Of a stretch of 64,000 nt of DNA, positions 26,413 through 35,794 are shown piece after piece. Source of the stretch: Vulcanimicrobiota bacterium (lineage in GTDB: Bacteria > Vulcanimicrobiota > Vulcanimicrobiia > Vulcanimicrobiales > Vulcanimicrobiaceae); contig OY970223.1 in assembly GCA_963714015.1 (NCBI GenBank), forward strand, positions 1,280,001-1,344,000, given 5' to 3'. The position numbers and the translations under genes are program-made. The notes under the pieces were generated by a model. That model ran no database searches. It was not told the DNA's origin and saw nothing but the letters and a program-made list of their open reading frames with translations. Every line of letters begins with the position of its first letter. Within the stretch, counting starts at the first letter, position 1.

Positions 26413-27825
26413 TTAGCCGACTGAGCCTTCCATCTCCATTTTGACGAGGCGATTCAGTTCGACCGCGTATTCCATCGGGAGTTCCTTGACGAAGAAATCG
26501 AAGAACCCGTTGACGATCATTGCGGTAGCGTCGGCTTCGGATAGGCCGCGGCTCATGGCGTAGAAGAGCTGCTCCTCGCCGATTTTACTGACGCTGGCCT
26601 CGTGTTCGACCGTGGAGCGCTGCTCGTGGATCTTCATCGTGGGCTTGGTATCGCTCGCGGACTGCTCGTCCATGATGAGCGCGTCGCACTTCACGCGCGT
26701 TTTCGCGCCCGTCGCGCCGGGATGCACTTCGACCAAGCCGCGATACGTGGTCTTGCCGCCGTGCGCACTGACGGATTTATTGGTCACCACCGACGTCGTG
26801 TTGGGCGCCGCATGAATCACTTTGGCGCCGGCGTCCTGGTGCTGCCCTTCACCGGCGAATGCCATCGAAAGGATCTCGCCGCGCGCGCCTTCTCCCATCA
26901 AGTAGATCGCCGGGTACTTCATCGTCAGACGTGAGCCGATGTTGCCGTCGACCCATTCGACCGTCGCGTTCTTGTGGGCGTACGCGCGTTTGGTGACCAA
27001 GTTAAAGATGTTGCGGTACCAGTTTTGAATGGTCGTATAACGAATCGACGCATCTTCGAGCGCTATGAGCTCTACGACCGCGCTATGCAGCGAGCTGGTC
27101 GAGAACTTGGGGGCCGTGCAGCCCTCGATGTAGTGAACTTTTGCGCCCTTGTCGGCAATGATCAGCGTGCGCTCGAACTGGCCCATATTCTCAGCGTTGA
27201 TGCGAAAATAGGCCTGGAGCGGCATCTTGACTTCGACGCCGGGCGGAACGTAGACGAACGAGCCGCCCGACCAAACGGCGGAATTCAGCGCAGCGAACTT
27301 GTTGTCTGCGGGCGGAATGATCGTCGCGAAATACTTCTGAAGGATCTCGGGATACTGTTTGACGGCTGTGTCCATGTCGCAGAAAAGGACGCCAAGTTTC
27401 TCGAGCTCGGTGCTGACGTTGTGGTAAACGACTTCGGATTCGTACTGTGCCGACACGCCGGCCAAAAACTTACGTTCGGCTTCGGGAATCCCCAGACGAT
27501 CGAAAGTGCGTTTGATGTCGTCGGGGACGTCGTCCCAAGAGCGCTCCGCCCGGTCGGTCGACTTCACGAAATAGTGGATATTTGCAAAGTCGATCTCATT
27601 CAGCAAAGCCGTGTCGCCCCACCCCGGCATGGGCTTGCTCAAGAAGATCTCCAGCGCTTTCAAGCGGAAGTCGCGCATCCAAGCGGGCTCGCTTTTCATC
27701 TCGCTGATGCGCGTGACGATTTCGCGGGTCAGACCCTTCCCCGATTTGAAGACGTAGTTTTCGGGGTCATGAAAGCCGTGTCGATAGTCGTCGACGATTG
27801 CCGTGGTCTTCAGTTCGGTGGCCAT
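26413..27825 (-). CDS. sufB: Fe-S cluster assembly protein SufB
   Basis: [47 protein letters not shown]. Confidence 0.97.
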
Positions 27826-27882: not shown

Positions 27883-27930
27883 AGGCTACCCCCGGCGAGG
27901 GCGATAGTCAAGATAGTGAAGTCCTATCTT
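27883..27930 (-). promoter_or_regulatory. sufB promoter with overlapping inverted repeat
   Basis: TTGACT-17 nt-TAGCCT (27883..27911); AAGATAG-N7-CTATCTT at 27910..27930. Confidence 0.6.
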
Positions 27931-27976: not shown

Positions 27977-28011
27977 TTTACAGGGGGGGTCTGAGGGGAT
28001 ATCATATCCCC
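27977..28011 (+). promoter_or_regulatory. speD promoter with perfect palindrome over the -10 box
   Basis: TTTACA-17 nt-TATCAT; GGGGATAT-C-ATATCCCC at 27995..28011. Confidence 0.65.
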
Positions 28012-28089
28012 CGGTCTCTTTATTAAACGCTCTAGCCTTCCTCAGCGGCTGCGGCCGAACGGCCGAGCCGGTCCTGAAGGAGCCAAAGC

Positions 28090-28188
28090 GTGACGAAGCG
28101 GCCACGGGATATGGGAGGCGCGCCCTTACGCGCCATCGCGGCGAGACGCCCGCGCACCGAAAAAGCGCCGGCAAGAGTTCGCCGATAG
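28090..28188 (+). CDS. Putative 32-aa Arg-rich leader peptide upstream of speD
   Basis: AAGGAG 7 nt before GTG; MTKRPRDMGGAPLRAIAARRPRTEKAPARVRR then TAG. Confidence 0.45.
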   Translation: MTKRPRDMGGAPLRAIAARRPRTEKAPARVRR

Positions 28189-28268
28189 GTCGGGGACGTG
28201 ACTGCACTGCAGGCGCCAGCCGACGTGGTCCGGAGGTGGGATTTCCCCCAAGTTCGAGGAGATAGAAA

Positions 28269-28682
28269 TTGAAGGCACTCGGTACGCACATTGTGTGCGA
28301 ACTCTCGGGGTGTGACCCGAAGGCCCTCACGGACGTCGATGCCGTCCACGCCATGATGATTCAGGCGGCCACTGCGGCCCGCGCGACCATCATGGAGAGC
28401 GCCTTTCACCGGTTCGAGCCACAAGGTGTATCTGGGACCGTCATCTTGGCGGAATCGCATCTGTCCATCCATACTTGGCCCGAGAAGGGCTACGCCGCGA
28501 TGGACTTCTACACGTGCGGCGACCACACGGACCCATGGCTTGCCTGCGAACATGCCGCGAACGTGCTGTCGGCCAAAAACGTGCTGACCACCGAATTCAA
28601 GCGCGGTATCGAGGCGAAAAACGGCACTTACACGCACGTGGTGACCGCGACCGAAGCCGCCGATCGTCCAAAAACAGCCTGA
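28269..28682 (+). CDS. speD: S-adenosylmethionine decarboxylase proenzyme (short class 1b)
   Basis: FEPQGVS, LAESHLSIHTWPE (E|S self-cleavage), DFYTCG; GAGGAG RBS and TTG start. Confidence 0.95.
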   Translation: MKALGTHIVCELSGCDPKALTDVDAVHAMMIQAATAARATIMESAFHRFEPQGVSGTVILAESHLSIHTWPEKGYAAMDFYTCGDHTDPWLACEHAANVLSAKNVLTTEFKRGIEAKNGTYTHVVTATEAADRPKTA

Positions 28683-28705: not shown

Positions 28706-28738
28706 AACAGCGCGTCAATCGACGCGCTGTTATTTTTT
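28706..28738 (+). terminator. Intrinsic terminator after speD
   Basis: AACAGCGCGTC-AATC-GACGCGCTGTT then ATTTTTT. Confidence 0.85.
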
Positions 28739-28785: not shown

Positions 28786-30568
28786 GTGAAGAATGCATTA
28801 TCCCGACTTGAAATCGTCTTCGTGCTTGGTTTCGCATTTTTGACGGCTTGCGGCGGCGGCGGTGCCGGCGGAAGCTCGGCTCAATCGGCCGGCGGAGGAC
28901 TTATGCCCGCCGCGCCGTCGACGCCCCAGCCCAATCAGAGTTGGCAAGGTCCGGTCGGCTACTTGCAGAGCGGCGGGCCGCTCATTAGTACCGGAGCGAT
29001 AACGCACGGTACTCGGCAAGCAATTGTGGCGGTGATGTCGGGCGATACCGCATCGGGAACGTCGTTCAGTCCCGACAATTTGACGGTCGACACGCAGGGC
29101 AGCAGCTCGCCCAGCAGCTTACGGCGATCCGCCGGGATGCGGGCCCGCCGGTCGTTGATCTCGCAAGTCGTGCCCGTTGAGGCGCACCCGGCGGACGATT
29201 CCGCGCTGCTGCAAAAGCTTCGCGGCATTGCGGCTCCCGGCGCTCGCGCACAATACTCGGAGCGGCGACGCGAGAGCGTCGTTCCCTCGAATCCCGCTGT
29301 TGGTTCGACTGCATCGATTTGGGTCGAAGACGGAGTCGGCACCAACTACAGCGTCCAAGTTCCGGCGACGCTCGTCGTGCAAACCGCTCATGGAAACATT
29401 TGGATGGACGACACGCTGCGCAATACGGCGGCGTGGAGCAATGCAGCTCAGATAGGAACCGACTTCGAAAACGGTTACGTCTCGGACACGGCGCACTTCG
29501 CTCATCCCGATTATCCGGATAGCGCGCCCGGGCTGCAGGCTCAATATCAATCATGCGATTCGAGCGGTCACGTCACCGGTACGGGCAGCGGGTACATCAC
29601 CGAGCCCATCGACCATCGAGTGGACGTCATGGTCGTGAACTCTGCAGACTTGGGGGGATACGGCGGATACTTTTCCGCCGCGAACCTGATGAATCAGAGC
29701 GCTCTAAACTGCCTTGGCGGATCGTATGAATCGAACGAAGCGCCGTTCATTTTCGTCGGATGGTTCCAGAGCCAGAGTTCGGACTACGAGCTTCGCGAAG
29801 ACATGGTTCGCGGGACCGCCCACGAGCTTCAGCATCTCATCAATTTCGTGAACCACGCGCTGCTCCCGGAAGGCTCCTCGAGCCCTTCGTTCAACGGTTC
29901 GGAGTCGCCGTTCATCAACGAGGGCCTTTCAATGCTCGCCCAGGACTTGGCGGTGCAAAAAATGTACGGCGCCCAAGGCGTCAACTTCGATGCCGACGAT
30001 GCGCTCGCGCGTGCCGATGCTTATTTGTCCAATCCGGGCAACTTTTCGATCAGCACGTTCGCGGGCGTCGATTCGACCGAGTGGGGCGGCGGCGGATCGC
30101 CGCGCTACAACTGCTTTGGCGGCTGTTACGGCGGCGCGTATCTCTTCGAGCGTTATCTGCACGATCGCTTCGGAGGCGATTCCTACACGCACGCGATCGA
30201 AACAAGCGGCTCCGTCGGTCCGCAGAACCTTCAGAACGTCACGGGAGAGAGCTCCAGCGACCTGCTCGACGACTTCGCGCTTGCGATGGCCGCGAACGCG
30301 CTGGGTGTGAACAGACTCCGGGCGCTTCGCGTTCGGAACGCTGGGCCTTTCGGGAACGTACGCCGATCAGTTCGGCGAGCAGAAGACGCTCGGCGGTCTC
30401 TACGCTGCGGCGATTTCTGCCGGCGGATCCGTGAACGTTCAGGCGCCGCTCGGAGGATTCACGTTCGTTTCAGTGGCGAGCGTTCCGGCCTCGGGCGTTC
30501 CGCTGACAGTAACCGATCACGCCTCCGTCGGCGGCTTTGCACTCACAGGGGGCCTCGCAGAACACTAG
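28786..30568 (+). CDS. Lipoprotein zinc metallopeptidase, M30-like (frameshift near 30315)
   Basis: Lipobox LTAC; GGYF, AHELQHLINF, NEGLS; plausible C-terminus in shifted frame ends at TAG 30568. Confidence 0.75.
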
Positions 30569-30734
30569 GGCCCGTTAATACATTATCGCATAGCCCGTAT
30601 ATCCGGCCCTTTTTCGCTCTCGCGGCGTTGCTGCGGCTGCCACAATGCTGCGGCATTGCGTCAGTCCTCGCGCCTTGCGAGAACAAAAAATGACCGCATA
30701 TCCGAACCATGGACAATGTGTTAACGGGCCCTAG
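30565..30734. mobile_element. Miniature inverted-repeat element (MITE-like), 170 bp
   Basis: Ends CTAGGGCCCGTTAATACATT and AATGTGTTAACGGGCCCTAG (19/20 inverted match), CTAG at both boundaries, no ORF. Confidence 0.8.
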
Positions 30735-30752: not shown

Positions 30753-31640
30753 ATGCCCAAAACTCAGCACTGGCAGTGGTACGTCGAAGAGTTTTTTGCG
30801 ACGGAGCAGCATCATCACGCGATAGAGCGCGTGTATTTCGCGGGCAAGACGCCCTTTCAAAGCGTCGGAGTCATCGAGACACCCGTGCTTGGTAAGATGC
30901 TGATTCTCGACGGCGATACACAGAGTGCCCAGCACGACGAGAAAATCTATCACGAGTCGCTCGTCCATCCCGCGCTCGCGGCAGCGCGCGATCGATCTCA
31001 AGTGCTGATCTTGGGCGGCGGCGAAGGTGCGACGCTTCGCGAAGTCTTGCGGCATCCCGGCGTCAAGCGCGCCACCATGGTGGATATCGACGGCGAAGTC
31101 GTCGAACTTTCGAAGAAGTTTCTCCCGGAATGGTCCGCAGGAGCCTTTGACGATCCGCGTGCGCGCGTGATCGTGGGTGATGCGCTGCAATTCTTGGCGC
31201 GCGACCGCGAGATGTACGGAGCGATCATCTCCGATTTGACGGAGCCGCTCGCGGACTCGCCAAGCAATCCGCTCTTCTGCGACGCGGTGTTCAAGGACAT
31301 CAAAGGCCGCCTGGACGAGGGCGGCATCTACGTGCTGCAGGCGAGCACGGCCGGCTTTCACAACCTGACGCTCCACGCTAAAATGGCGCGCACGCTGCGC
31401 GCGTACTACAAGCACGTCGTTTCGTTTTACACGCACGTTCCGGCGTTCGACAACGACTGGGCGTTCATCGCGTGCAGCGATGCCGTAGACGTCGCCCAGC
31501 TCCAGGAAGACGCGATCGAGCGCTATTGCTCCGAGCTGCGCGGTGAGAATTTCTTCTACGACGGCATAACGCACCGCCGGCTTTTCGCGCTGCCGCTGTA
31601 CCTTCGGCGGGAACTTGCCAAAACGGGAGACACTTTTTGA
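30753..31640 (+). CDS. speE: Polyamine aminopropyltransferase (spermidine synthase family)
   Basis: LILDGDTQS, YHESLVHP, LGGGEGATLREV, VDIDGEV, DLTEP. Confidence 0.93.
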   Translation: MPKTQHWQWYVEEFFATEQHHHAIERVYFAGKTPFQSVGVIETPVLGKMLILDGDTQSAQHDEKIYHESLVHPALAAARDRSQVLILGGGEGATLREVLRHPGVKRATMVDIDGEVVELSKKFLPEWSAGAFDDPRARVIVGDALQFLARDREMYGAIISDLTEPLADSPSNPLFCDAVFKDIKGRLDEGGIYVLQASTAGFHNLTLHAKMARTLRAYYKHVVSFYTHVPAFDNDWAFIACSDAVDVAQLQEDAIERYCSELRGENFFYDGITHRRLFALPLYLRRELAKTGDTF

Positions 31641-34020: not shown

Positions 34021-34397
34021 TTGGCGCAGCCGGCTGATCTCTTGTACAGCAAAGAGCACGAATGGGTCAGAATCGAGGGCGATACGGCGACGGTCGGAAT
34101 CACCGACTACGCGCAAAACTCGCTGGGCGACATCGTTTACGTCGAACTGCCGAAGGTAGGCGCAAGTGTCGCTCCCGCGGGAAGCGTCGGCGTCGTCGAG
34201 TCCGTGAAAGCGGTGTCGGACCTCTTCACACCGGTCGGCGGTGAAGTAACGGAGATCAACTCCGCGCTCGACAACGATCCCGCGCTGGTCAATCGCGAAC
34301 CGTTTGCGGGCGGATGGATGTTCAAGATCAAGCTCGCGGGCCCGGCGCCGCCCATCTTCTTTCACCCGATCAATACGACGCGTTAACGGCTGAGTAA
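34021..34397 (+). CDS. gcvH: Glycine cleavage system H protein (frameshift near 34353)
   Basis: [20 protein letters not shown] (lipoyl Lys); normal C-terminus LLSPDQY in shifted frame. Confidence 0.95.
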
Positions 34398-34430
34398 GCA
34401 AAGCATGCGGCACGGCCGGAGCGCCTTTTA

Positions 34431-35794
34431 ATGTATACACCCCATACGGAGCGTGACGTCGCGCAAATGCTCGAAGCGATCGGCGTTCCGTCGCTCGAGA
34501 AGCTTCTCGAGGTTCCCGACGCGGTAAAGCTTCGCGAGAAGCTCGAGATCGTGCCCGCCCTTTCCGAATCGGACATCGTGCGCAGGTTCGAACATTTCGC
34601 GCAAAAGAACTCCGCTGCGTCGTTCAGGTCCTTTTTGGGTGCCGGATCGTACCGGCATTACGCCCCGCCTGCAATTAGCGCGCTCGCTATGCGTGGTGAG
34701 TTTCTGACGGCGTATACCCCATATCAGGCCGAAGTATCGCAGGGGTATCTTCAAGCGATTTACGAGTGGCAGACGTACATCTGTCTTTTAACGGGACTCG
34801 ATATCGCGAACGCCTCGGTCTACGACGGCGCCACAGCGCTCGCCGAGGCAGCCATCATGGGGATCAACGCCAATGGCCGCAAGAAAGTGCTCGTTTCGCG
34901 CGCGATTCATCCGAACTACCGGGCCGTGCTCAAGACGTACTGCGACGGATTGGAAGTAGAGATCGACGAGCTTCCAATCGGCCGCGACGGAACGACCGAT
35001 CTCCGAAGCGTGAGCGAAAGACTGGCCGGCAAAGAGTACGCCTGCATCAGCTTTGCAGTCGCCCAATTTTTTCGGGAACGTCGACACAGCGGACGACGGC
35101 GTACAAGCGGCCGCGCGCGAGAGCGGAACAGTGCTGGTCGGGGTCGTCGCTGAAGCACTCTCCCTTGCGGCGCTGCAGGCTCCGGCGGCTTGGGGCGCCC
35201 AGATTGTGGCGGGCGAGGCGCAGAGCTTCGGCGTCCCGGTCGCTTACGGGGGCCCTTATGCCGGCTTCATCGCTTCGAGCAACGAACACATGCGCCGCAT
35301 TCCGGGACGTCTGGTCGGCAAGACGCTCGACGTGCACGGAAACGAAGCGTACGTTCTTACTCTCCAAGCTCGCGAGCAGCATATCCGCCGCGAGCGCGCC
35401 ACTTCGAACATTTGCACGAATCAGGCGCACTGTGCGCTGATCGCTACCATCTACCTTGCGCTCATGGGCAAGACCGGGTTGCGCGACGTTGCATCGGCCA
35501 ATCTCGCCCGCTCGCGTCGAGCTCGCCTCACGCGTCGGCTCGATTCCCGGGTGCTCGCTGCAGTTCGAGGCGCCGTTCTTCAACGAGATCGTCGTCAACG
35601 TGCGGCAACCGGCTGCGCCCGTGCTCGCAAAACTCCACGACCGAGGCATTTTGGGCGGCGTGGATCTCGGCCGCTTCTATCCCGAATACTCCGAGTGCAT
35701 TTTAATGTGTGCGACCGAGCTCACCTCGAGCGCCGACATCGAGGCGCTTGCTGCTGCTCTGTACGAGGTCTGTAATGTCCCGGCTCGCGTCTGA
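34431..35794 (+). CDS. gcvPA: Glycine dehydrogenase subunit 1 (frameshifts near 35050 and 35515)
   Basis: YTPYQAEVSQG, NASVYDG, REQHIRRERATSNICTNQ, FFNE. Confidence 0.93.

Follow-up and report, generated by a model that had tools for sequence, protein, structure and literature searches.

A conserved structured leader RNA of speD in Vulcanimicrobiota is a good riboswitch candidate

The S-adenosylmethionine decarboxylase gene, speD, of a Vulcanimicrobiota bacterium is preceded by a real, apparently undescribed cis-regulatory RNA, located at positions 28113-28249 of the 64,000-nucleotide stretch of DNA that was analyzed (the window). This conserved element, shared by soil bacteria of a widespread group, comprises a pseudoknot at its 5′ end, three helical arms that covary and, after them, the near-invariant sequence GGAGGUGGGAU. 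That is, the 5′ leader of speD contains a conserved, covarying structure with a narrow link to one gene, as is expected of a riboswitch, and we consider it a good candidate for one.

Results

The speD locus

The region comprises the following features (window coordinates and strand):

26413-27825, minus strand: sufB, divergent, upstream neighbor of the region
27977-28005, plus strand: sigma-70-type promoter of speD (-35 TTTACA at 27977-27982, 17 nt, -10 TATCAT at 28000-28005)
28012-28107, plus strand: P0, a hypervariable 5′ hairpin region (transcript start-to-P1 distance 16-159 nt in 62 leaders)
28090-28188, plus strand: 32-codon open reading frame (ORF), judged to be a chance ORF overlying RNA structure
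28113-28134, plus strand: H-type pseudoknot, GGG 28113-28115 with loop CCC 28123-28125, and helix P1, 28117-28122 with 28129-28134
28139-28184, plus strand: P2/P3 arm, with P2 28139-28145 pairing with 28178-28184, P3 28148-28155 with 28165-28172, and a variable tip
28189-28224, plus strand: P4 arm, with an invariant GUC/GAC base, a bulged stem, P4b (28202-28205 with 28209-28212) and an ACN triloop
28232-28249, plus strand: core GGAGGUGGGAU plus pyrimidine arm; a Shine-Dalgarno (SD)-like heptamer that no conserved start codon follows
28256-28261, plus strand: true SD of speD, GAGGAG, from the sequence
28269-28682, plus strand: speD, S-adenosylmethionine decarboxylase proenzyme, 137 aa, TTG start (TIGR03330)
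28706-28738, plus strand: likely intrinsic terminator 3′ of speD, an 11-bp stem and U run folding at -19.9 kcal/mol

The promoter predicts a transcript start near 28012 and a leader of ~257 nt before the speD TTG, in agreement with the ~255 nt estimated in an earlier note on this DNA. A comparable promoter lies ahead of 64 of 65 leaders of the window's family, and is visible in other families too. speD is present in a single copy in the genome; its product scores 144 bits against TIGR03330 (cut-off 75.65), and its start codon is TTG (UUG) in 58 of the 65 family leaders. A search of the window for terminator-like sites gave none on the plus strand from 28012 to 28268.

Other observations were made at this locus. 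An inverted repeat, AAGATAG-N7-CTATCTT (27910-27930), lies beside a minus-strand TTGACT upstream of sufB and is kept in many relatives; it resembles what we take to be an operator of the Rrf2 family (SufR/IscR). Among 38 family genes, codons 3-4 of speD (28275-28280) are GCA CTC in 97% and 88% of synonymous cases; later in the gene the mean is 56%. No pairing partner was found for these codons. In the Syntrophomonadaceae-containing phylum, TTGATTG often directly follows the -10 box of speD promoters (L272-L301, L325-L343). In other classes of Vulcanimicrobiota, the speD start stands in a recurring GGGGUGGC-UU-GCC-AUG context (L082, L084, L085, L092, L099, L101, L108), which could fold over the start codon.

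In the window, speE is found at 30753, beyond an unrelated 635-codon ORF (28786-30693), a spacing unlike that of the many relatives in which speE is close to speD; speE lies within ~1.5 kb of speD at 38 of 68 loci, some of them the same genome counted twice. The 635-codon ORF has a lipoprotein-like start and a HELQH (HExxH) motif, and no NCBIfam match; its tail overlaps a second ORF (29760-30434), and it may be frameshifted. At 34021-35440, gcvH-like and gcvPA-like ORFs stop abruptly in unrelated-looking residues, which suggests single-base errors in the one-contig assembly of this genome. Such errors would touch reading frames in the window's genome, not the cross-species result.

The Arg-rich ORF and the 5′ stem are not conserved

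The earlier note had proposed that speD is controlled by an Arg-rich leader peptide or a riboswitch, and had pointed to a 5′ stem that can pair over the ribosome-binding site of the ORF. Both features are present as described: the ORF at 28090-28188 has 32 codons, 9 Arg and an AAGGAG 7 nt upstream, and the sequence 28012-28110 folds at -42.2 kcal/mol. The Arg content, which the note itself had partly ascribed to GC-rich DNA, is within chance expectation at 70% GC (mean of 7.0 Arg in 2000 dinucleotide shuffles, P(≥9) = 0.23), and the other five frames over the ORF give 5-7 Arg. The folding energy of the whole leader is no more than chance (z = 0.12) and is uninformative.

We examined 65 distinct family leaders, of which 62 were scored, two fell outside the pattern and one lacked a promoter match. 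Across these 62 leaders neither the start, the SD, the frame, the stop nor the peptide is conserved. An in-frame start and TAG occur in 16 of them, which differ in start and peptide and have no SD in common. From P1 to the TAG stop, every one of the three phases is represented (32/19/11), and 16 of the 62 leaders lack the TAG. The inner hairpin of the 5′ stem is found in a single leader, the window's own. Both the stem (28036-28082) and the AAGGAG/GTG of the ORF (GTG at 28090) belong to the non-conserved P0 region. The leader-peptide reading is thus largely refuted.

An alignment of relatives' speD leaders had been set beforehand as the test of these proposals, and it reveals a conserved structure, not a conserved upstream ORF. 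What stands of the proposed new structured regulatory RNA of speD is the segment 28113-28249, by virtue of its covariation and exclusive linkage to speD, and not the 5′ stem; three downstream hairpins that had also been pointed out are present, and are part of the structure conserved in the alignment. We also considered whether the 5′ stem is a genomic repeat (its best other match in the genome is only 20 nt), whether a second, 24-codon ORF at 28198 is translated (rejected, as its frames are not conserved) and whether there is programmed frameshifting (rejected, the core-to-speD phase being 30/22/10).

A pseudoknot and three arms are supported by covariation

Of 41 genomes searched at the DNA level, 23 gave a match, and most of the alignments start near window position 28100. 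We then aligned 62 of 88 non-redundant leaders; the alignment omits the four of the sister family, several that have long inserts, and near-duplicates. Without guidance, RNAalifold finds P1, P2, P3, P4 and P4b; of its 36 pairs, 21 show changes on both sides. For a 41-pair structure, 94.5% of 2542 cells pair in the 62 homologs and 22 of the 41 pairs change on both sides; shuffled controls pair at 88.1% (none of 500 reaches the real values) and slid controls at 36-43%. Kinship inflates the shuffle test, as related sequences in the alignments are not independent; the slid control and the pair types, namely G-C/A-U and C-G/G-C swaps, agree with it. In a model-fitted alignment of 100 matches, the model pairs have the top mutual information and no tertiary covariation is seen. 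G-U pairs are consistent with the speD-sense strand. Within the full leader of the window, pair probabilities are 0.7-0.98 for P1-P3, the outer P4 stem and P4b, and 0.42-0.47 for inner P4. The helices are serial, with no closing stem and no upstream-to-linker covariation.

P1 is 99.7% paired, and one of its pairs is G-C in 42 leaders and A-U in 20. The pseudoknot loop is not CCC in 8 of 100 homologs, and all eight keep pairing with the 5′ strand, seven by Watson-Crick compensation and one by G-U; for this count the best of 1-3 nt gaps was chosen. Both P2 and P3 have changes on both sides in 6 of 7 pairs, and the pair at the base of P4b is C-G in 30 cases and G-C in 28. Between P2 and P3 is an internal loop, AC / AAGAG, with the invariant C28147, and P3 holds a conserved C·C mismatch; one leader (L322) is without P3 yet retains the C and AAGA. 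The conserved unpaired bases include C28147 opposite AAGAG, the C·C mismatch, the AUCG and AUAG linkers and the ACN triloop. Conserved unpaired bases of this sort are typical of binding pockets. Two unpublished genomes, G021 (L007) and G023 (L015), are included in alignments A1 and A2, and L015 supplies one of the eight pseudoknot loop variants; no conclusion depends on them or on the unpublished genomes named below.

The element follows speD

A covariance model of the element (R1) matched 117 of 119 genomes of the window's family, 3 of 3 of its sister family and 0 of 18 of the next, third family (among these 18 is the unpublished G036); many of these matches are in the training set, and with 22 candidates scored per genome weak paralogs could be missed. 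All 121 strong matches are located just before speD: 95 were placed by coordinates, 17-27 nt from the speD start, 20 were fetched and 6 were earlier loci. There is one copy of the large domain per genome, always before speD. Of the two family genomes that R1 did not match, one (G141) has no speD match and the other (G217) only a distant one; two weak matches of the model, inside coding sequence, were rejected. In the sister family the gene upstream of the leader is not sufB, so the RNA follows speD. A scan of the genome collection placed at least 93 of 119 loci at speD, but because its pattern included speD codons it is circular and gives no census; the unpublished G223, G254 and G270 enter only in the speD-match tally. 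Viral contigs gave 0 matches to the element.

Contigs from four RNA libraries, of four studies, cover the leaders of relatives, and leader and speD are joined in three of these studies. Such contigs give neither strand, level nor start, may reflect DNA carry-over, and come from runs with small shares of the relatives' sequence. Uncovered bins upstream of 28098 are uninformative because that part is not conserved.

An SD-like core without a start codon

The core GGAGGUGGGAU is almost invariant and lies 35-50 nt before the speD UUG; GGAGGTGGGAT is found in 98 of 100 aligned homologs. In three leaders the core-to-start spacing is ~81 nt, the extra sequence folding as a separate hairpin in two. 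The GGAG-loop-YUCC form is present in 63 of 65 leaders of the window's family, 3 of 3 of the sister family and 18 of 18 of the third. On its own, without the large domain, the short core is kept ahead of speD across Vulcanimicrobiota. Inspected by eye, 28 of 39 leaders of other classes have a clear core, 3 a partial one and 8 none, most of these 8 preceding distant speD genes; one locus could not be aligned. In 80 genomes outside the order, an exact core pattern gave 31 matches, 27 at speD and 4 inside long ORFs, against 6 control matches; since the pattern was derived from these leaders, only the absence of other genes is informative. Outside Vulcanimicrobiota the core is rare: of 51 speD leaders in the Syntrophomonadaceae-containing phylum, 1 has an exact copy and ~4 have degenerate ones. 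A looser pattern, applied to 401 genomes of that phylum, proved too loose and, among the matches listed, was near control level; a second core-like match in the window's own genome is inside coding sequence. Both were set aside.

The core pairs with the 16S tail, which was confirmed in the genome, more strongly than the true SD does in 107 of 113 leaders, and core variants mostly retain this anti-SD pairing (GGGGGUG, GGAGGUGA). In the window's genome, only 5 of 1947 long ORFs have GGAGGT[GC] 28-60 nt upstream. GGGAU is more conserved than anti-SD pairing would require, which hints at a protein. A GGAG/UUCC core hairpin is favored in 0 of 65 family leaders, with no double changes; the alternatives favored are GGG/CCC (31) and pairing with upstream bases (18).

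Several ways in which the element might reach the true SD were evaluated. In the window's family, blocking the core shifts the SD opening energy by a median of 0.0 kcal/mol, against 0.2 kcal/mol in controls. The arm and SD of one leader pair no better with each other than with those of other species (-4.55 native vs. -5.01 cross-species), and a search of this family for mutually exclusive folds that would couple the domain to the true SD found none. Neither an anti-SD/SD switch, nor a closing stem, nor SD-to-coding pairing gave a native-over-cross signal, and we saw no covariation between the large domain and the core. Pairing of the arm with the true SD is possible in other classes, where 16 of 27 show a shift of more than 1 kcal/mol, a modest effect.

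Comparison with known regulatory RNAs

At permissive thresholds, Rfam gave only chance matches in the window and 32 related loci, besides a neighboring tRNA in L099. The SAM-I covariance model had no match in the window, these 32 loci or the genome (3 of 14 controls matched), which bears out the earlier note's remark that a SAM-I core is absent. The SRP RNA (RF00169) of the genome is at C1:2525463, not at the speD leader. A weak 6S-like match (RF00013; C1:780882-781068, 30 bits against a 46.4 cut-off) is possibly the lineage's divergent 6S RNA. We found no published description of the speD leader motif; most subscription papers lie outside the search, and an unnamed listing in the supplements of PMC11109978 or PMC5737381 is possible. 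The main texts of PMC11109978 and PMC6429828 do not mention speD or spermidine, and one supplement of PMC8632094 contains no speD term.

A close precedent is the spermidine riboswitch, reported in PMC10853860 as variants of SAM-I (RF00162) with 13 examples in Gram-positive genera, and with more classes expected. These spermidine-sensing OFF switches on speD/speE share with the leader studied here a location 5′ of polyamine genes including speD, and a model of product feedback. They are nonetheless built differently, as a four-stem SAM-I junction with a terminator, whereas the speD leader has serial helices and a 5′ pseudoknot, with no P1 closing a junction, no terminator and no RF00162 match.

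Other known systems resemble the speD leader in part. The odc1 motif of alphaproteobacteria (PMC8632094) is likewise the leader of a polyamine gene with a UUG start; it acts at the level of translation, as the speD leader probably does, and has an unknown ligand. Its 5′ nucleotides also pair with a hairpin loop, a likeness of topology only. However, it belongs to a different gene and phylum, and its ribosome-binding site is inside P1, with a conserved 11-aa upstream ORF; here the SD at 28256 is outside the helices and no upstream ORF is conserved. The fungal SDC motif (PMC5640933) is a structured RNA directly upstream of SAM decarboxylase that represses translation, but it is a single 11-bp hairpin in eukaryotes, and its authors saw no binding of spermidine or spermine, which calls for caution about the ligand. 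The SpeFL/orf34 arrest peptide (10.1101/604074) also exerts leader control over a polyamine gene, and an ORF of similar length exists in the window's genome alone; yet SpeFL is a conserved peptide with a HIRRXXH + Phe core that acts via Rho, and the peptide of the speD-leader ORF has no His and no Phe.

Discussion

Translation initiation is the likely level of control, because the leader lacks a terminator, the element lies directly against the SD and speD begins with UUG in most of the family. We conclude that the speD leader RNA probably acts in cis and on translation. In the mechanism we favor, the core would be the ancestral working part, i.e., a start-less decoy or standby ribosome site, to which a 110-nt upstream domain (pseudoknot, C/AAGAG loop, C·C mismatch and P4) would have been added in one order. 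This domain would bind a ligand and set the availability of the core, such that plentiful product would lower SpeD. We give slightly less than an even chance to the proposition that the large domain directly senses a metabolite of the polyamine pathway and acts through the core, in feedback on speD translation. Judging by gene function and precedent only, the most likely candidate ligand would be spermidine; decarboxylated SAM, MTA and SAM are alternative candidates. The full proposal, namely a new riboswitch class whose own fold of a pseudoknot and two arms recognizes spermidine or decarboxylated SAM/MTA, works via a start-less second SD and was grafted in one order onto an older, phylum-wide decoy-SD element, is more tentative, and we rate it as possible but doubtful. 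The sensor may, however, not be the domain, as in other families the core does without it.

The best surviving alternative is that the leader is a protein-binding site, in which SpeD or SpeE (autogenously) or another RNA-binding protein would recognize the core, presented by the helices. The invariant 11-mer that exceeds the anti-SD match would fit such a site, as would its occurrence once per genome at one gene, the frequent proximity of speE and the presence of CsrA in the genome. For CsrA, though, target leaders have conserved GGA in hairpin loops, and several families have core loop variants without GGA (GUGAAAU, GUGGGUU, GUCGGCU); nor do we know of any RNA-binding activity of SpeD or SpeE. 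We consider a protein site unlikely.

Marginally less probable still is direct tuning by polyamines. That is, the core would be a decoy or standby site modulated by polyamine effects on 30S binding, and the large domain would bind no ligand and only stabilize the mRNA or space the site. Consistent with this are the anti-SD pairing kept by most core variants, the greater strength of the core relative to the true SD next to a weak UUG start, the occurrence of the core alone in other families and the arm/true-SD pairing in other classes. This explanation, however, leaves the invariant unpaired bases, the C·C mismatch and the pseudoknot unaccounted for.

We find it improbable that the large domain acts as a non-coding RNA of its own, independent or processed, i.e., a small RNA or a self-cleaving or processing element sharing the speD promoter. 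It is indeed single-copy, highly conserved and pseudoknotted, with no predicted switch to the SD; but there is no terminator before speD, RNA-library contigs span the leader into speD, SRP RNA and the 6S-like match are elsewhere in the genome, and the element is always 17-27 nt from the speD start. Attenuation by a SpeFL-like Arg-rich peptide is very improbable: the ORF of the window's genome does have a start, an AAGGAG and a stop, frame 2 is the commonest (32/62) and in some relatives an ATG immediately precedes the pseudoknot, yet the Arg count is at chance level, start, SD, frame and stop are not conserved, and neither the HIRRXXH motif nor the Phe core reported for SpeFL (10.1101/604074) is present. 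Least credible of all is a DNA operator, despite the inverted repeat GGAG-N7-CTCC in the core, given that ~35 pairs on one strand show compensatory and G-U changes, and that the promoter distance varies widely while the start-codon distance is tight.

As the candidate riboswitch we prefer, the speD leader would stand apart, with a fold unrelated to SAM-I variants and covariation across more than 120 genomes. There is one obvious gene, speD, so the list of ligands is short and testable at once. If the proposal is true, the two-layer history of this RNA, with a short core phylum-wide and a large domain in one order, would show how a sensor is built onto an existing translation element, and a second, start-less SD conserved shortly before the real one would be an unusual control device in itself.
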